A stretch of DNA of 8,892 nucleotides from an uncultured archaeon (lineage in GTDB: Archaea > Iainarchaeota > Iainarchaeia > Iainarchaeales > CSSED10-239), in NCBI GenBank assembly GCA_964591795.1, contig CAZQEL010000026.1, positions 1-8,892 of the forward strand, in the 5' to 3' direction. Numbering within the stretch: position 1 is the first letter of the stretch; each line of letters starts with the position of its first letter. A program made the translations under genes and the position numbers. The notes under the pieces are model-generated. The model saw only the letters and a program-made list of their open reading frames with translations, was not told where the DNA came from and searched no databases. Below, piece by piece: positions 2,065 to 8,892 of this stretch.

Positions 2065-3060
2065 ATGAAAAATAACAAGATAAAGTTTATTAAACAAAGT
2101 ATTTTATTTATCTGTATTTTAAGTGTTTTTATTTTTGGGTTAAATTTTATATGGTTAGAATCAATACAAAAAAGCAAGAACATCTTTAGAGGGGAAGAAA
2201 TTTATATCAACTACATTAAAACCCTTGGAGATAAAAAAATAGATTTAGCTTTTTTTGGTGATTCTCATACACAGGATGCGGTTAATCCTGATTACATTAA
2301 AAACTCCTTTAATTTTGGTTTCCCAAGCGAGAATTTTGTTGAAATTTATTATAAGTTAAAGAGAATTATAGAAGAAGATGATATTTTGATAAAAAGTATT
2401 GTTTTAGAAATTGATTGGCATATATTTTCTGATAAAAGAGCTCAGGAACATGGTCTTTTTAAAGAGATTCCATTTTATTTAAGGTTTGTTTCGTTGTTTG
2501 ATATGGCGGAATTGAAACAGAAATCTTTATTTAACATTTTTATTCAGGGATATTTTCCATTTTTAGGAAATGGAGAAAAAATGGTTAGATATTTTTTACA
2601 GGATCGTTCTAACTTAACACCTATTTATCTTGGATGGGCTGAAAAAATAGGGGATTTCTCTTTATATAAGAATAAGAAAAAAGTTGCTCTTGAAAGAGTA
2701 AACTATTTTTTTGATGATGGTATTGCTAAAATAAACGAGCAGGTTTTTGATTATTTCCTAAAATCAATTCAACTAGCAAAAGAAAATGGAATTAATGTTG
2801 TAGTTATAAAATATCCACTTTCAAAAGAATATGATGATGCTATATCAAATATTGGGATTAAGGATATAGAAAAAGATTACTATTCAAAAATATTTAATGG
2901 TATAGAATCAAAGTTAGGTAAAGATTATAGTTTACTGGATTATTACGATGTATTTTTTGATCATTCTGAATATTTTTCGAATTCTGATCACTTGAATAAG
3001 ATAGGTGCAAGTAAATTATCAAATATGATTTCTGAAGCTTTAGTATTACTAGATTTATAA
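2065..3060 (+). CDS. Membrane-anchored partner of the MBOAT; SGNH/DltD/AlgJ-like acyl-transfer protein (family not confidently assigned)
   Basis: The ATG lies 3 nt after the MBOAT stop. There is a single N-terminal hydrophobic helix (SILFICILSVFIFGLNFIWL, ~2095-2157). A FFGDSHTQ motif (GDSH at 2257-2268) resembles SGNH block I, and the C-terminal NSDHLNKIGA (DH at 2986-2991) resembles the Asp/His block of DltD/AlgJ-type proteins. The gene order MBOAT then periplasmic partner is conserved in AlgI-AlgJ, PatA-PatB and DltB-DltD. Confidence 0.6.
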   Translation: MKNNKIKFIKQSILFICILSVFIFGLNFIWLESIQKSKNIFRGEEIYINYIKTLGDKKIDLAFFGDSHTQDAVNPDYIKNSFNFGFPSENFVEIYYKLKRIIEEDDILIKSIVLEIDWHIFSDKRAQEHGLFKEIPFYLRFVSLFDMAELKQKSLFNIFIQGYFPFLGNGEKMVRYFLQDRSNLTPIYLGWAEKIGDFSLYKNKKKVALERVNYFFDDGIAKINEQVFDYFLKSIQLAKENGINVVVIKYPLSKEYDDAISNIGIKDIEKDYYSKIFNGIESKLGKDYSLLDYYDVFFDHSEYFSNSDHLNKIGASKLSNMISEALVLLDL

Positions 3061-3070
3061 GACAAAAGTT

Positions 3071-3919
3071 TTATATTCTTAACCAGCAGTTAGGTAGAAG
3101 GTCAATTGTATCTTTATTGGGTTTAATAAACCATTTTTGAGGGGAGATGATTATTTTATTCGTGTTTTGATTTAACCAAGCTGCCCACCAACTAAAAGTA
3201 CTGTTGGCGATAATGTTATGTTTACATTTACTCATTAGAATTAGTTCTTCATAATCTTTTGTATTTTCTATAAAAGTAATAGGAAATTTAATTATTAAAT
3301 TTTTTTTACACCATTTTAGATCATCAGAAAAGATAAAAAAATGAGGATTAGAAATTTTCTCAGATATTTTTTTTATAGCTTTGTTGTAGTAACCTAAAGA
3401 ACAAGAGTGGTAAACATCTTTTTTTGTTTCTATATAATCAGTCCTCCTTACGTGTAGTGAAATAGAATTATTATTGATTATTTGTTTTTTAATATTGTTA
3501 TTCAGTTTAATTTTTAAAGTGAATTCTTCTCGAATTATATTTTCAATCTCTTTAAAATATTTTTCGTTTTGCCAATGTCCATCTAAGTAGTTATTTTTTA
3601 GATTTCTTTTTTTGTTCTTTTTTGTTTTAAATTTAGATTCTTCAATGTAAATTGAATTATCAGCAAAAAATAAGTTATGAAAAAAATATTTTTTATTATT
3701 TTTAAATTCGTATTTTTTAATTTTTTTTATTTCTTCATCTGTTGCAATATTTTCAACAATATTAAAATTTCCTAAGGAGTAATTTCTAACTTCATTTTTT
3801 TGACGATAGGATGATAAATCAAGTTTTAATATAGTATTGTCCTTATAGGCCAAATTTCTTCCCATTGCGTACTGAAACATTTGATTCCCTAATCCTCCTT
3901 GTAATTTTGTTATAATCAT
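3071..3919 (-). CDS. GT11 alpha-1,2-fucosyltransferase
   Basis: All three GT11 signature blocks are present: MIITKLQGGLGNQMFQYA at the N-terminus, SLHVRRTDY (~3434-3454) and ANSTFSWWAAWLN. I place the start at the ATG at 3917-3919 (MIITKL...), which forms an ATGA overlap with the upstream stop. The ORF track's longer start at 3952 would add 11 non-conserved residues and a 37-nt overlap. Confidence 0.9.
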   Translation of the reverse strand: MIITKLQGGLGNQMFQYAMGRNLAYKDNTILKLDLSSYRQKNEVRNYSLGNFNIVENIATDEEIKKIKKYEFKNNKKYFFHNLFFADNSIYIEESKFKTKKNKKRNLKNNYLDGHWQNEKYFKEIENIIREEFTLKIKLNNNIKKQIINNNSISLHVRRTDYIETKKDVYHSCSLGYYNKAIKKISEKISNPHFFIFSDDLKWCKKNLIIKFPITFIENTKDYEELILMSKCKHNIIANSTFSWWAAWLNQNTNKIIISPQKWFIKPNKDTIDLLPNCWLRI

Positions 3920-4647
3920 TTTTTTGTAGCTAATATGTGCAATCCGAAACAAAGTAACTCTTCAGATTTTTTATTTTCTCTTGATAATTTATTTAACAAT
4001 CTTAAAATAATTTTAAAACCTATCTTATTAAAAAGTTTTTTTGATATATCCAGTTTGGTGTACTGTTTCTCTATTTTCGGAATTCGTCTAATTTCCTGAG
4101 CTAAATATTCGAAAAAGTTTCCGTTAAATTCAATTTTATTGATTTCAAAACTATTTTCTTTGAGTACTTTTTCATACCAATATTTACTGTATCCATTAGC
4201 AAAATAATAAGGGGCATAATGTGTTAAGGAACAGAAAGGGGCTGTTATGATTAATTTTCCTGTTGGTTTCAATATTCTAGAAAACTCTTTTATAGCATCT
4301 ATCGGTTTTGGGAGGTGTTCTAATACCTCAACACACATGATTGCATCATACTCTTCATTTTTCACAGGAATATCAGTGATATCTGAAATTATATCTATTT
4401 CAGTGGAGTCTCTTTTTTTGGTTTGAAGACCTTCACTGTTTCCTTTTCCGTCATATTGTCCAAAGTCTTGACTAGTATAATTAAGATGATTACAAAATTT
4501 TTTATATTGTAATTCTCCAGCCCCTGCATCTAAAATTTTGTAGTTTTTTGTGATTTGCCGAAGTGTTTTTTCTAACCATGATTCTCTAGTTTTTTTATTT
4601 TTTTTGCCGACGTCGCTGTCTATATTTTTTTTTATTTTTTTAAACAT
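3916..4647 (-). CDS. Class I SAM-dependent methyltransferase (Methyltransf_11/23-like)
   Basis: Motif I is KILDAGAGELQ (~4513-4536). The post-I/II region is YDAIMCVEVLEHLPKP, followed by LKPTGKLIITAP. Size (243 aa) and motif order fit small-molecule or sugar methyltransferases. Confidence 0.87.
   Translation of the reverse strand: MFKKIKKNIDSDVGKKNKKTRESWLEKTLRQITKNYKILDAGAGELQYKKFCNHLNYTSQDFGQYDGKGNSEGLQTKKRDSTEIDIISDITDIPVKNEEYDAIMCVEVLEHLPKPIDAIKEFSRILKPTGKLIITAPFCSLTHYAPYYFANGYSKYWYEKVLKENSFEINKIEFNGNFFEYLAQEIRRIPKIEKQYTKLDISKKLFNKIGFKIILRLLNKLSRENKKSEELLCFGLHILATKK
4625..4641. repeat. Homopolymer pair T9-A-T7 (A7-T-A9 on the coding strand) at codons 3-8 of the stand-alone methyltransferase
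   Basis: Counted directly: T run 4625-4633 (9), A at 4634, T run 4635-4641 (7). The coding strand reads ATG TTT AAA AAA ATA AAA AAA AAT = MFKKIKKN. Confidence 0.95.
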
Positions 4648-4669: not shown

Positions 4670-5446
4670 TTAATCGATATCTTGATGTATTTTAAAACCA
4701 TAATATTTGCTAAAAATCGTGTTTACTATTTTAAATTTGTGGGCTAACACAGATAGAGTGGCTTGATCTTGTCTGTGATTATTTCTGTTACTTCCTTCGG
4801 GTGCAATACATTTTTTTTCTAGAGCGCATTTTTCCCATTTATATACAACATTCCTAACATTATTATTTTTGTAATTTATTGCAATGCAAGCACCATTTAA
4901 ATTTTGTTTGGAAAGTAATTTTTTAGAGATACCAATAAACTTAAGTGTTTTCGGATGAGTCCATTCAGATATCCTTCCACTAGAGTAGGGAGAATAAAAA
5001 CCAACAAGGTTCATTATTTTTTTTATAATACTTAAAGGCGATGTAATCACGTTTCCTGCATCCATCCAACAAACACTACATCTATACTCGTTTAATATCT
5101 CTATAATTATAACAGGTTTCCATGCATATTCTCCCGCATTTATATTTACGTTAAAATATTCTGGATATTTTGAATAATTGAATGACCTTATCTCTATTTC
5201 CTTAAATCTATTTTTAAGTTTATTTCTTTCTAAGAGAGTCATTCCCAAATCAAAAACAATTGTTTTTGTAAATGGTTCATGTAAATGAATACTAGATAAT
5301 AATTGCTTAAGACTTTTATAGTGAGAACTATCTGTTCCTGTTACTATTATAAATTCTTTATTGTGTATTCTTTTAGTAAAAATAAGCGAACTTAATCTTA
5401 GAGAGTGTCTAAATTTATTAATGTTTTTTTTAAAAATATTATCCAT
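4670..5446 (-). CDS. Uncharacterised 258-aa protein; possible nucleotide-sugar-transferase-like enzyme (tentatively DUF1647-like)
   Basis: The long ORF sits in operon context, 12 nt after the upstream gene and 22 nt before the next. No TM segment is obvious. It shows a Rossmann-like start FIIVTGTDSSHYKSLKQLLSSI, then GEYAWKPVII, CWMDAGNV and NHRQDQATLSVL, which I recall from DUF1647-type putative glycosyltransferases. The family call is from memory only. Confidence 0.45.
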   Translation of the reverse strand: MDNIFKKNINKFRHSLRLSSLIFTKRIHNKEFIIVTGTDSSHYKSLKQLLSSIHLHEPFTKTIVFDLGMTLLERNKLKNRFKEIEIRSFNYSKYPEYFNVNINAGEYAWKPVIIIEILNEYRCSVCWMDAGNVITSPLSIIKKIMNLVGFYSPYSSGRISEWTHPKTLKFIGISKKLLSKQNLNGACIAINYKNNNVRNVVYKWEKCALEKKCIAPEGSNRNNHRQDQATLSVLAHKFKIVNTIFSKYYGFKIHQDID

Positions 5447-5458
5447 TATTATGGTAGT

Positions 5459-7225
5459 TTAAATTCTATTCATAAAGATATTGTTATGACCAACTATACC
5501 TATATGTATAAGTTCTTTCATTGCATATTTTTTGACTACATCGCTTGGACCAGGATGGCCTGCTGATGAAAAGAAAGGGGGGATAAAAGAAGTTCCTAAT
5601 GAAGAATCATCAAAAATCAATAAACCTTTTTCTGATAGTGATTTTTTACAGAGTTTATAGTCAGCTAAAACAGTATCATAATCGTGGTCACCGTCTATGT
5701 ATATCAGATCCCATTTTTTTGATTTAATAAATTCGATTGCTTTTTTATCTGTAGATAAGGCTTTAACTAGATTGACTTCAGGTAATTTAAAATGTTTAAA
5801 TGATTTTTTTATATCCTTTTCGTAATCTATGTTTTTTATGTAAGAACTTACTGAATCCTTAGTTGATTTTAATGGTGATATTCCATTGACTTCACAATTA
5901 AACTTTAAATATTTTGCTATTAAAGTCCATAAAGAAATTACTTGTCCTCTGTAGACGCCTATTTCTAAACAGTGTTTTGGTTTAAATTCTTTTAATAAAA
6001 GCCACCACATGGAATGAAAAGAGTCCTCTCCAAATCCTCTTTTTTCTTTTTTAAAATAAGAACGATGTCGACGTATTTTTTTAGGTAATAAATGGTAAAA
6101 ATAATGATGCATAAATAAATAAATTTTATTGGGGTGTTTGAAATTTTTTATAGCATTTGTAAAGTTTAAATTAAGATTAAAATTTTTGTTAAACTGTTTA
6201 TAGGGTGTAAGTTTTTGCCTTTCATTAAGTATATTTTTATACAATTTTAATTTTAGTAAAATTTTATTTGTAAATTTATTTTTATTAAGTTTCTTTTTTA
6301 TTTTGTCTATTAGAATAGATTTATTTTTGTTGTTTAAGGATATTTTTTTTGTATTATCTATTGGGCAGTTATTTAATTTGGCTGTAGGTATACCAGGTAT
6401 TTTATAAATAGTATTATTTTTTTCTTGATTAATTATTTTTAATAGATCTTTCCTGTTCCATTTTTTTATGTTGTTTATGTTTCTTCTAATTATTTTACCC
6501 ATTTCTGGTTGGTGGGTAGTTCGAGTTCCTCCCCATTTTAGCTCTGAGTGAAATTTTAATGCAAAAACACCATTTTTAAAACCAGCTTTACGGCATCTAA
6601 TAGCATATTCTAGGTCGTCATGTCCGTATGGTGCCAATTTTTCTTCCAATAATCCTATTTTTTTTATAACATAAAAAGGAAAACATACCGGACTTTTTAT
6701 TGATATATCTCGATATGAAAAATGGTTTGGTACAAGGGTTTCTGCATAGTCTAATCCATGTCCATATATACTTTCTAGATGATCGGTTTGAGGTATAAGA
6801 TAATCAGACTTTAAAATGTTATTAGCAAAATTGGCTCCTAATCTAAAAGAAATGCATCCAAGTTTTTTTCCTCCCCATTGATATAATTTAATTATATTAT
6901 TTTCTAATTCAAGATCGTCTAAGATTACATCATCTTGTAATATTATATTAAATCCATCTCCATTTTGATTTGTTTTTTTTAATCCTATGTTTATTGATAA
7001 TAATTCATGAACATCGGATGCATATACCTTTTTTATAGGGATGTTGATATTTTTTTTAATTATTGAATCAATAATTTTTTCTGTTTTATCTGTACACCCA
7101 TCAAGTACAGGGTATATAAAACTATTACTTCTACAACTATCTAAAATAGAGGTAAGAACATTTTCAATTAAATCTTCTTTATTGTGTATTGTTATTATGT
7201 AATTAAATCTGGGAAGTTTTTTCAT
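5459..7225 (-). CDS. Bifunctional fusion: N-terminal GT2-like glycosyltransferase, Lys/Asn/Leu-rich linker, and C-terminal class I SAM methyltransferase (Methyltransf_24/CmcI-like)
   Basis: N-terminal domain (~6434-7207): YIITIHNKEDLIENVLTSIL, VLDGCTDKTEKII, the DxD motif ILQDDVILDD (QDD at 6929-6937) and YGHDDLEYAIRCRKAGF. C-terminal domain (~5462-6046): RGFGEDSFHSMWW, CLEIGVYRGQVISLW and WDLIYIDGDHDYDTVLADYKLC..GLLIFDDS (DGDH at 5684-5695). I prefer the start at ATG 7223-7225 (TGATG overlap with the upstream stop) over the TTG at 7226-7228 used by the ORF track. Confidence 0.85.
   Translation of the reverse strand: MKKLPRFNYIITIHNKEDLIENVLTSILDSCRSNSFIYPVLDGCTDKTEKIIDSIIKKNINIPIKKVYASDVHELLSINIGLKKTNQNGDGFNIILQDDVILDDLELENNIIKLYQWGGKKLGCISFRLGANFANNILKSDYLIPQTDHLESIYGHGLDYAETLVPNHFSYRDISIKSPVCFPFYVIKKIGLLEEKLAPYGHDDLEYAIRCRKAGFKNGVFALKFHSELKWGGTRTTHQPEMGKIIRRNINNIKKWNRKDLLKIINQEKNNTIYKIPGIPTAKLNNCPIDNTKKISLNNKNKSILIDKIKKKLNKNKFTNKILLKLKLYKNILNERQKLTPYKQFNKNFNLNLNFTNAIKNFKHPNKIYLFMHHYFYHLLPKKIRRHRSYFKKEKRGFGEDSFHSMWWLLLKEFKPKHCLEIGVYRGQVISLWTLIAKYLKFNCEVNGISPLKSTKDSVSSYIKNIDYEKDIKKSFKHFKLPEVNLVKALSTDKKAIEFIKSKKWDLIYIDGDHDYDTVLADYKLCKKSLSEKGLLIFDDSSLGTSFIPPFFSSAGHPGPSDVVKKYAMKELIHIGIVGHNNIFMNRI
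6125..6382 (-). other. Low-complexity basic linker (about aa 283-368) between the GT2 and methyltransferase domains of the fusion protein
   Basis: The translation reads ...KKISLNNKNKSILIDKIKKKLNKNKFTNKILLKLKLYKNILNERQKLTPYKQFNKNFNLNLNFTNAIKNFKHPNK... It has no catalytic motifs, and hydrophobic residues recur at i/i+3/i+4 spacing among Lys/Asn, which suggests amphipathic helix or coiled coil. Boundaries are approximate. Confidence 0.5.
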
Positions 7226-8217
7226 CAATTAATTATAGAATTTAAATCATTTAACCATGCTTCACATATAGTCAATTCATCACTTTTTATATAGTTATTT
7301 CTTTCAAGTTCTTTATAGATACTTTTTAGGTTTTCTTTATAATCTCCCTCTAATTTAATTTCGTCTAAAATTTTTATAATTGCTTTTATATTTAAATAAA
7401 TTTCAATCTCATCATCAAAGTCTTTCATTAAATTATGGCTATTACGGTTTTGATAAACTGTTGCTTTTGTAAAACCTAGATGTAATTGTTCCTCCCAAAA
7501 TAATCTTTGAGCAATATATCCTCTTAAGATATCAGTGAATCTAAAACTTACAGTTGAAGGTAAATACATAGAATAAAAAACTTTTTTATTCCAAGTTGTG
7601 TTTTGTGAGTTAAAAGGACAATATGTGTTTTTATTTAGAGCAATTGGTTTTTTGTTGTTAAATTTTATTTTTTTGTTGTTAGTTAATCTATAGATAGCGT
7701 CAACATCAGGATCGATATCAGCTAGTCCTTGCCAGGCTCCTATTTTTAATTCAGTTTGGTGTTCTTTTTTTAATTTTTGTATTTTGTTAATTTCATTCAA
7801 TGGATATCCTCTTGGCCATATTTTTTTTCTTGTAAAATATGTGTAAATATTAAGAAATTTGTTATTATTTTTTATTAAATTGTTTGTTTTGAATTCAGGG
7901 AAAGACCAATTATTATAAGGGGTGTTATCGTCATCAGTATCATAAATGATATCAGCACCTAAACTAATAGCGTAAAGATATCCAATATTTTTTCTTGAAT
8001 AATGGTTGTATGGTAAGTATTTTATTACTTCAAAATCTAGTTTGTTTTGATCTTTGACAGATAAAAAAATAATGTTATCCTCGTTTTTAATTTGTTTACT
8101 TTTTTTATCACCAACTAAAATTATTTTCCAATCTTTGAATTCAGAAAATTTTTTAATAGCATCAGTTTTTTTGTTTATTGTGGTTATTACTATGAATTTT
8201 TTTTGTTTTTTTTCCAT
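7225..8217 (-). CDS. STELLO/DUF288-like putative glycosyltransferase
   Basis: 330 aa. The motifs FIVITTINKKT, WKIILVGDKKS, YSRKNIGYLYAISLGADIIYDTDDDN (DTDDD at 7927-7941) match the pattern I recall for the DUF288 (STELLO) glycosyltransferase-like family, which is related to GT75-type enzymes. The gene lies 4 nt downstream of wzt, and its TGA overlaps the next ATG. Confidence 0.6.
   Translation of the reverse strand: MEKKQKKFIVITTINKKTDAIKKFSEFKDWKIILVGDKKSKQIKNEDNIIFLSVKDQNKLDFEVIKYLPYNHYSRKNIGYLYAISLGADIIYDTDDDNTPYNNWSFPEFKTNNLIKNNNKFLNIYTYFTRKKIWPRGYPLNEINKIQKLKKEHQTELKIGAWQGLADIDPDVDAIYRLTNNKKIKFNNKKPIALNKNTYCPFNSQNTTWNKKVFYSMYLPSTVSFRFTDILRGYIAQRLFWEEQLHLGFTKATVYQNRNSHNLMKDFDDEIEIYLNIKAIIKILDEIKLEGDYKENLKSIYKELERNNYIKSDELTICEAWLNDLNSIIN
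8197..8213. repeat. Homopolymer pair T8-G-T8 (A8-C-A8 on the coding strand) at codons 2-7 of the STELLO-like gene
   Basis: Counted directly: T run 8197-8204 (8), G at 8205, T run 8206-8213 (8). The coding strand reads ATG GAA AAA AAA CAA AAA AAA TTC = MEKKQKKF. Confidence 0.95.
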
Positions 8218-8221
8218 TTTT

Positions 8222-8892
8222 CTATTTTATATTTATATTTCCATCAAGTATTTGATATCCAGCACCTCTCATATCTGCTTCAAAGGTTTTTCCTTCTTGA
8301 AATGAATAACCTAGAATATTTAGATTAACAGCATTTTTAATAATAACATGACTTTCTATTCCTGGATTAGTAAGGTTAAAATCTAGTAAATACTTACCTT
8401 TATTGAGTTTTGGAAGTTTTATTTCTGCTGTTAAAAGGTGTTTTCCTGGAGAGCAAAAAAAAATGTTGTCTTCAGGTTTTGTATGGCCTGGTACACAAAC
8501 AGCTATGTGATTTCCCAGATTATCTTTTAAATGTGTTTCCAGGGTTATTTCTTCTTCTTCTTTTGTTTCAAAGTTTATTTTAATTTCTAAAGACGATGGT
8601 AATGAGGGTATTTTAACTCTTTTTTTATGAGAATCATTACAAGTTATTTTTTGTAATTTGATATTTTTATTTTTATAAAATGTATTATCAATTATTTCTT
8701 CTAATTCTTCTTCTTTATTTATTGCTTCGTTATTTAAGTATGTATCAATAACATCTTTTGTTTCACCGATCATTTTTATTTTTCCTTCTTCAATAAGAAT
8801 ACATCTTTTGCAGAGGTTTTGGATGGCGGTGAGGTTATGGCTGACGAAGAGGATGGTTCTTCCTTCTTCTCCTGTAACTTCGTCCATTTTGC
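8222..8892 (-). CDS. wzt: ABC-transporter ATP-binding protein, Wzt/TagH type (5'-partial; N-terminus lies beyond the right edge), with a C-terminal extension
   Basis: The frame stays open to the window edge (..AKMDEV..). The visible N-terminal part, GRTILFVSHNLTAIQNLCKRCILIEEGKIKMIGETKDVIDTYL, is the H-loop and C-terminal end of a polysaccharide-exporter NBD. Walker A/B and the signature motif must lie outside the window. About 165 further residues (8225-8730) show alternating beta-strand-like patterns typical of Wzt C-terminal glycan-binding domains. Confidence 0.85.
   Translation of the reverse strand, partial: KMDEVTGEEGRTILFVSHNLTAIQNLCKRCILIEEGKIKMIGETKDVIDTYLNNEAINKEEELEEIIDNTFYKNKNIKLQKITCNDSHKKRVKIPSLPSSLEIKINFETKEEEEITLETHLKDNLGNHIAVCVPGHTKPEDNIFFCSPGKHLLTAEIKLPKLNKGKYLLDFNLTNPGIESHVIIKNAVNLNILGYSFQEGKTFEADMRGAGYQILDGNINIK

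Follow-up and report, generated by a model that had tools for sequence, protein, structure and literature searches.

The glycosyltransferase-methyltransferase gene and its two halves

The DNA considered here is a stretch of 8,892 nucleotides from an uncultured archaeon (GTDB lineage Archaea; Iainarchaeota; Iainarchaeia; Iainarchaeales; CSSED10-239), namely positions 1 to 8,892 of contig CAZQEL010000026.1 (NCBI GenBank assembly GCA_964591795.1), referred to below as the window. Its GC content is approximately 26%, and its minus strand carries the subject of this study, a gene in which a GT2-like glycosyltransferase (GT) and a class I S-adenosylmethionine (SAM)-dependent methyltransferase (MT) are encoded as one polypeptide. 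The whole open reading frame (ORF) occupies positions 5459-7228 and comprises 589 codons, with the stop codon at 5459-5461 and a product of 588 amino acids (aa). The start codon is likely the ATG at 7225, which overlaps the TGA of the upstream gene (TGATG) and gives 588 aa between 7225 and 5462, and not the listed TTG at 7228. By chance, 589 stop-free codons would be expected with a probability of approximately 1e-24 (stop probability of 0.089 per codon at the base composition of this strand). The 588-aa ORF is a real gene, and both of its catalytic domains look intact.

The GT-A/GT2-like core (aa 1-262; 6440-7225) is recognised by a partial Pfam match, an AlphaFold2 (AF2) model, Foldseek and conservation. 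It is followed by the C-terminal tail of the GT (aa 263-317; 6275-6439), which was delineated with a tail profile and contains a strand, IYKIPG, at the place of the VPxM motif of the family, as well as helices at aa 291-298 and 300-313. The fusion junction and the N-terminal helix belonging to the MT itself come next (aa 318-340; 6206-6274), in a segment that matches the head of approximately 19 aa found in stand-alone MTs. The remainder consists of a conserved helical N-terminal extension of the MT (aa 341-419; 5969-6205), with the pattern ..HHYF..LP..I..HR.Y....GFGE..FH.MWW, and the class I SAM methyltransferase core of the Methyltransf_24/CmcI/MeT1-like type (aa 420-588; 5462-5968), identified by Pfam, Foldseek and invariant residues. 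A preliminary description of this gene had proposed a single ORF carrying GT2-like and Methyltransf_24/CmcI-like domains, with which the fold model, the Pfam matches and the invariant residues agree. The motifs also lie where it had placed them, with QDD at aa 97-99 (6929-6937), HDDLEY at aa 202-207, RCRKAG at aa 210-215, LEIGVYRGQ at aa 420-428 and IDGDHDYD at aa 510-517.

In the N-terminal half, Pfam matches Glycos_transf_2 (PF00535) at aa 10-62 only, with 22.0 bits against a cut-off of 23.3; the same cut-off is passed by several homologues (e.g., P0042 with 27.3 bits and P0253 with 31.5 bits). The AF2 model, built from an alignment of 143 sequences, has a mean predicted local distance difference test score (pLDDT) of 91.9 for the fusion protein and exceeds 90 across aa 1-262. 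Foldseek searches with this half returned PcManGT, WrtF, SpsA, TarP and TarS, and the top matches were all GT-A/GT2 enzymes (probability 1.00, E 3e-9 to 3e-7). Despite the sub-threshold Pfam score, a complete GT-A fold is thus confirmed by the model and its structural matches. Furthermore, D42, D46, the triad Q97-D98-D99 and the W231-G232...R235 loop are invariant in 71 sequences of the GT family, and D203-D204 are nearly so. The first of these residues belong to the nucleotide-binding motif LDGCTD (aa 41-46), H202-D203-D204 lie within 6605-6622, and Q97-D98-D99 (6929-6937) form the DxD-type motif, in which Gln replaces the first Asp of the canonical sequence. Mean column identity across the GT core is 69% in the alignment of fused homologues. 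Sequence and profile searches of the PDB with the GT N-terminus gave weak matches to heparosan synthase or TagF only, and no biochemically characterised member of the GT family was found.

The C-terminal half matches Methyltransf_24 (PF13578) at aa 420-540 with 42.6 bits against a cut-off of 26.3 (E = 1.2e-10), accompanied by a weak RMNT_CmcI match, and Foldseek matched it to mycobacterial MeT1 (6G80; TM-score 0.71, normalised to target). At the sequence level, CmcI was a weak match in the PDB, reached at E = 1e-5 by profile only. Motif I, LEIGVYRGQ (5942-5968), aligns in the family profile with VELGVYNGG of CmcI, and the residues E421, G423, R426, Q428, D457, D471, D511, G512, H514, D539 and D540 do not vary across 72 sequences of the MT family. 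Putative metal ligands lie in two segments, IDGDH (5675-5698) with D511 and FDD (5606-5614) with D539-D540, which align by profile with IFID(D/N)AH and IIED of CmcI, the second being weak alone (6.6 bits). The corresponding metal-binding positions of CmcI are D160, E186 and D187. At the end of beta-2, where an acidic residue usually binds the ribose of SAM, Ser450-Pro451 (GISP) stand in place of the Asp of CmcI (GID), and the invariant D457 follows six residues on. The extension ahead of the core (aa 341-419) has 62% column identity and helices with pLDDT above 90, and is present in all stand-alone family members. With motif I and the acidic positions invariant and a MeT1-like fold, the CmcI-like SAM methyltransferase domain looks intact, and the broken SAM pocket that the preliminary description had allowed for was not found.

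Fused and separate homologues, and the origin of the connecting segment

Twenty-one other clusters of full-length fused proteins (571-606 aa, 43-69% identity) were recovered from independent assemblies in ENA, Logan, JGI and NCBI. Both domains also exist as stand-alone proteins. The GTs have a median length of 327 aa and are 46-60% identical over aa 1 to approximately 320, and the MTs (1667 matches) have a median length of 269 aa and are 53-60% identical over aa 341-588. Only approximately six of the best 150 representatives (50%-identity clusters) are fused. A survey of loci with one genome per GTDB species, classified with internal stops taken into account, gave 28 loci with both domains. 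The two are fused without internal stops in 10 of the 28 (the window, L005-L011 and the Saccharibacteria loci L045 and L063) and split but adjacent in 16, with the GT gene followed by the MT gene on the same strand at gaps of -31 to +49 nucleotides (nt). As for the other two, the order is reversed in L026, where the MT24 gene comes before the GT gene, and the genes are 2.6 kb apart in L034. Stand-alone GT and MT genes adjoin on the same strand 30-39 nt apart in L001-L003, and the closest genome match to the window is L011 (JAGLLX010000003.1), a metagenome-assembled genome (MAG) of Candidatus Paceibacterota with 70% identity, a match in keeping with the GC content of the window. Homologues are therefore both fused and split, and the possibility raised in the preliminary description that orthologous loci always hold two genes does not hold. 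A frame bias in the split pairs was considered as a hint of read-through or recoding and rejected, as 6/16 pairs share a frame, which is the chance value, and their junctions contain several different stop codons.

Rough neighbour-joining trees of the GT and MT domains, drawn without support values, spread the fused proteins over at least five clades with stand-alone proteins between them, and for P0005, P0007 and P0009 the nearest neighbour of the GT domain is in each case a stand-alone GT. Fusion or fission has thus taken place repeatedly. The median lengths of the separate proteins add up to 596 aa (327 + 269) against a fused median of 587 aa, so no spacer was added at fusion. Judged by these comparisons of sequence, the fusion is shown to have arisen several times, end to end, from a two-gene cassette that is widespread in many phyla. 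The same GT subfamily also occurs with other fusion partners. P0042 and P0077 (769 aa) have a C-terminal region ending in repeats resembling tetratricopeptide repeats (weak, sub-threshold matches), P0072 (530 aa) is fused to an FkbM-type methyltransferase, and P0101 (L026 10686-12245; 519 aa) carries an unannotated extension of approximately 190 aa.

The preliminary description had placed a linker between the domains at 6125-6382 (aa 282-367). A variable connector does exist, but its position has to be shifted to aa 263-340 (6206-6439), given that aa 341-367 already belong to the conserved MT extension. The alignment of fused proteins is conserved to approximately aa 262, indel-rich and variable over aa 263-340, and conserved again from aa 341. 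Within the variable part, mean column identity is 22% (62-69% in the domains) and length ranges from 62 to 97 aa. The segment is modelled at pLDDT 51-75 with predicted helices at aa 291-298, 300-313 and 318-343. Its DNA has 17% GC compared with 27-28% for the domains, 71% of its residues are Lys, Asn, Ile or Leu, and its net charge is +16. The low identity, the variation in length, the base composition and the abundance of these four residues together show a segment that is apparently under relaxed constraint in an AT-rich genome.

The termini of the separate proteins account for this segment. Past the position equivalent to aa 262, stand-alone GTs continue for 62-70 residues that have the pattern VPxM...W..N...L in common and end in a basic helix, and stand-alone MTs have approximately 19 residues ahead of the equivalent of aa 341. 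A profile of the stand-alone GT tails matches the fused linkers (E 1e-10 to 4e-14 in P0005-P0009; E = 8e-5 at aa 258-315 of P0001). Because the summed lengths agree, the tail profile matches and the heads of approximately 19 aa cover the rest, the linker is shown, from these alignments and profiles, to be the C-terminal tail of the GT and the N-terminal helix of the MT, parental termini joined end to end. In the predicted structure, helix 300-313 is the terminal helix of the GT and helix 318-343 is the first helix of the MT.

Periodicity of heptad a and d positions, scored against shuffles, gave no signal in 22/22 orthologues (z -2.0 to +1.3, compared with 4.2 for GCN4 and 3.0 for tropomyosin). 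The preliminary description had also suggested that the spacer could act as an amphipathic helix at the membrane interface. Amphipathicity of the segment in the window protein was not supported (hydrophobic moment, muH, 0.43; z = -1.0). The tails of stand-alone GTs have a median maximum muH of 0.65 and a net charge of +6, with z > 2 in only 22% of them. An amphipathic membrane helix is thus weakly supported for the stand-alone tails but not for the window protein.

Pathway context and possible roles of the fusion protein

Most of the split relatives and several of the fused ones are located in clusters that also encode a Wzx flippase, a Wzy polymerase and Wzz. In a Wzx/Wzy pathway, the methylated sugar would belong to the repeat unit, and no terminator exists. 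The subclade of the window (P0001-P0004) is always found in an operon with the order wzm - wzt - (STELLO-like) - fusion - DUF1647 - GT11. Both wzm and wzt are present in L008, L009 and L011, and wzt is present in the window and in L007. The window holds the 3' part of wzt (8222-8887, minus strand), encoding an ABC-transporter ATPase with a C-terminal extension of approximately 165 aa and sub-threshold similarity to Wzt_C, and the contig ends inside this gene. In nearly every surveyed locus a methyltransferase gene comes after the GT gene, and in most of them it is MT24. A Methyltransf_23/11 gene lies directly downstream of the GT gene in L004/L024, L016, L020 and L038; enzymes of this kind follow the GT in Polynucleobacter, a Planctomycetia MAG, a Betaproteobacteria MAG and Ginsengibacter. 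This pairing of the GT with methyltransferases of differing families argues that the product of the GT may be the substrate of methylation.

We consider it probable that the protein is a bifunctional tailoring enzyme that adds a sugar to a lipid-linked cell-surface glycan and then methylates it, made by end-to-end fusion of the widespread GT-MT cassette. The GT2 domain would use a nucleotide sugar as donor to add one sugar to the growing glycan, and the metal-dependent CmcI/MeT1-like domain would then O-methylate that sugar, or its neighbour, with SAM. Fusion would merely fix the stoichiometry and proximity of two enzymes that already cooperate, and the tail might be a vestigial element for association with a membrane or a partner, and not a ruler. 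The evolutionary part of this account, which is shown, is firmer than the sequential chemistry. Several points weigh against the account as a whole. Both families appear to be biochemically uncharacterised, and action of the MT on the GT's own product is suggested by gene linkage alone. The predicted template modelling score (pTM) of the AF2 model is only 0.65, so that the model does not fix how the two domains are oriented towards each other or whether substrate is channelled between them. In addition, the window subclade lies in an ABC-transporter pathway, unlike most relatives, and its role may be more specialised.

A sequencing or assembly artefact, by which a frameshift or a lost stop codon joined two genes, is exceedingly improbable. 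In its favour, the window consists of one short contig of metagenomic origin, split genes are commoner than fused ones, and the two genes share a frame in 6/16 split pairs. However, that fraction is the chance expectation, the split genes are parted by several stop codons and an intergenic spacer and not by one base, and three relatives with 62-69% identity keep both the gene order and the fused ORF. Uninterrupted fused ORFs occur in at least nine other independent assemblies from four sources, and the artefact is excluded because of these fused homologues. Hardly more credible is the proposal, made in the preliminary description, of a miniature polymerase/terminator in which the basic helical spacer serves as a coiled-coil oligomerisation element or chain-length ruler, after the domain-coiled-coil-domain logic of WbdD and WbbB. 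The predicted helices, the strongly basic segment and the ABC-transporter-dependent locus fit that proposal. However, the segment is inherited from the tail and head of two proteins that most genomes encode separately, none of the 22 orthologues approaches the heptad signal of the controls, and its length, sequence and modelled structure are as loosely kept as described above. Furthermore, the longest helix has 26 residues (approximately 4 nm), far below the known rulers, and there is a single GT module with nothing to suggest polymerase activity. The terminator part is likewise unsupported, because the majority of relatives are encoded in Wzx/Wzy clusters, which have no need of a chain terminator. 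The ruler/polymerase model is therefore essentially excluded.

A terminator without a ruler deserves more weight, and we regard it as possible but doubtful. Here, the fusion protein would form a cap by adding the last sugar at the non-reducing end, methylating it and stopping elongation, and would thereby make the epitope that the C-terminal domain of Wzt must read before export. This role, just as tentative, is compatible with the chemistry of the tailoring enzyme favoured above, but gives it a specific function in gating. The window and its close relatives share the wzm-wzt operon, and all four Wzt proteins carry the extension of approximately 165 aa, with reproducible Wzt_C matches of 23-29 bits (E 7e-5 to 2e-6). 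The alignment of the window's Wzt fragment to A. aeolicus Wzt (7K2T/8DKU) extends through residues 190-375 and takes in the carbohydrate-binding domain (CBD) of the latter, which recognises 3-O-methyl-mannose or -rhamnose caps (PMC9445017). In the complete cluster of the Paceibacterota MAG (L011), large coiled-coil proteins are absent and no protein is larger than the fusion. In L018 and L042, a long wzt is closely followed by stand-alone members of the GT or MT family. On the other hand, all the Wzt_C matches are below the Pfam cut-off of 30.4 bits, a homology search with the C-terminal domain of Wzt returned nothing, a search of the PDB with this domain alone gave no solved structure, and hhalign of this domain against the A. 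aeolicus CBD gave 8% probability. Its single-sequence AF2 model has a pLDDT of 31. The methyl-lid Trp of the A. aeolicus CBD (W362 in the numbering of PMC9445017) corresponds to Ile in the window Wzt. The extension may nevertheless be a divergent CBD. At least one other methyltransferase per locus could do the capping, most family members belong to Wzx/Wzy clusters in which there is no cap, and every characterised terminator carries a coiled coil (PMC11231755). The coiled-coil terminators compared here are WbdD, WbbB, K. pneumoniae O4 ORF7 and O7 ORF6.

Somewhat less likely still is a narrower version for Candidate Phyla Radiation (CPR) bacteria (Paceibacterota-like, without lipopolysaccharide, LPS), in which the fusion would be a minimal coiled-coil-free terminator that adds and methylates a dedicated terminal sugar, the cap being read by the Wzt C-terminal domain before export. 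Such a protein would combine a unique sugar, as in WbbB, with methylation, as in WbdD, without a molecular ruler, and chain length would be set kinetically. If a cap is formed in this way in CPR bacteria, Wzt-gated export would be possible without the coiled-coil ruler seen in every characterised terminator. A possibly cap-gated ABC-transporter glycan pathway is notable in bacteria without LPS; the closest genome is a Paceibacterota MAG, and two further fused homologues were found in Saccharibacteria. Candidate acceptors of an exported glycan are the S-layer, pili or a wall polymer.

Fusions of a GT and a methyltransferase in ABC-transporter glycan loci are already known; the families differ here, are uncharacterised and come without a coiled coil. 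WsaE of G. stearothermophilus, which acts on the S-layer glycan of a monoderm, is a multifunctional enzyme of an ABC-transporter-dependent pathway, with an MT that 2-O-methylates terminal rhamnose and with rhamnosyltransferase domains. It differs from the window fusion in its N-terminal MT, in its two GT domains that also elongate the chain and, by description, in its families. ORF6 of K. pneumoniae O7 likewise joins SAM methyltransferase and GT2 modules in one polypeptide, in an ABC-transporter-dependent locus whose Wzt has a C-terminal carbohydrate-binding module (PMC11231755). However, ORF6 has approximately 1400 aa, a long coiled coil predicted by DeepCoil, a kinase domain and two polymerising GT modules, and its MT is N-terminal and of another family, whereas the window fusion lacks a kinase and any heptad signal, has only one GT and carries its MT at the C-terminus. 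WbdD (E. coli O9a/O8; K. pneumoniae O3/O5) and WbbB (K. pneumoniae O12) are also multidomain proteins, and they modify a glycan that leaves the cell through a Wzm/Wzt with a CBD, either by methylating its non-reducing end or by adding a unique sugar there (PMC3482155, PMC11231755). The window fusion has neither their extended coiled-coil ruler nor their C-terminus for membrane anchoring and polymerase recruitment, and the kinase/MT of WbdD and the GT99 Kdo transferase of WbbB belong to other domain families. In the 'TET operon' for the common polysaccharide antigen of P. syringae, genes for a WbdA-like GT and a WbdD-like O-methyltransferase lie beside wzm/wzt, fused in some isolates and separate in others (PMC7820976). 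This resembles the situation described here, but it concerns a bifunctional rhamnosyltransferase of GT1/GT4 type and another class I MT, in the order MT then GT, in a Gram-negative LPS producer. M. hassiacum MeT1 (PDB 6G80) and Streptomyces CmcI (PDB 2BM8/2BR3) share the fold, motif I and the acidic metal-binding positions with the MT half, although their sequence similarity to it is very low and they are stand-alone proteins with no link to a GT2. MeT1, like the mycobacterial rhamnosyl O-methyltransferases, O-methylates sugars.

Adjacency and repeated fusion, the classic signs of a Rosetta-stone fusion, thus link two large uncharacterised families, the GT2 subfamily of approximately 327 aa and the Methyltransf_24 subfamily of approximately 269 aa, as functional partners across many phyla. 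Thousands of genes whose present label is 'class I SAM-dependent methyltransferase' or 'GT2 family protein' thereby receive a candidate annotation, 'adds and O-methylates a sugar', although the practical value is modest. The result also calls for caution, given that drifted parental termini can, in an AT-rich genome, make up an interdomain segment that is basic, helical and of low complexity.

Further genes of the locus

The minus-strand genes from 8887 to 3071 look like one operon. Directly upstream of the fusion and translationally coupled to it is the gene for a STELLO-like (DUF288) protein of 330 aa (7225-8217). STELLO-like proteins of approximately 330 aa, with 35-48% identity to the copy in L008, are encoded directly upstream of the GT family in many phyla, for instance in L001 (4073-5077), L004 (8930-9925), L005 (8985-9998) and L010 (8967-9995), and also in L014, L015, L016, L020, L021, L026, L039 and L048. 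The conserved unit may therefore be one of three genes, encoding the STELLO-like protein, the GT2 and the MT.

Directly downstream of the fusion lies the gene for a DUF1647 protein (4670-5446, minus strand). It is always 3' of the fusion in the wzm/wzt subclade, with 59-70% identity to the window copy in L007 (2841-3623), L008 (7586-8338), L009 (6373-7155) and L011 (11802-12554), and its place inside a glycan operon suggests a glycan-related enzyme. The next genes on this strand encode a Methyltransf_11 protein (3916-4647) and a GT11 alpha-1,2-fucosyltransferase-like protein (3071-3919/3952). The listed TTG start of the GT11 ORF at 3952 is probably wrong; the ATG at 3919 overlaps the stop codon of the Methyltransf_11 gene (ATGA), an overlap that indicates translational coupling of the two genes.

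In Wzx/Wzy clusters, an FkbM-type (Methyltransf_21) methyltransferase recurs near the GT-MT cassette, in L001 (3140-4030), L002 (6523-7416), L005 (5675-6547), L010 (8100-8957) and L016 (9145-9897), and in some loci it shows a faint match to V. cholerae RfbT. Its recurrence hints at multiply methylated sugars.

On the plus strand of the window, a gene for an MBOAT/DltB-like membrane acyltransferase (610-2061) is followed by one for a DUF1574 protein (2065-3060), and both converge on the glycan operon. The pair resembles O-acylation pairs of the AlgI/AlgJ or PatA/PatB type, and it probably O-acylates the same glycan. The plus strand also contains an ORF of 83 aa (8054-8305) that runs antisense to both the STELLO-like gene and the terminal part of wzt; rich in Phe, Ile and Leu, it is most likely a chance ORF opposite AT-rich coding sequence.

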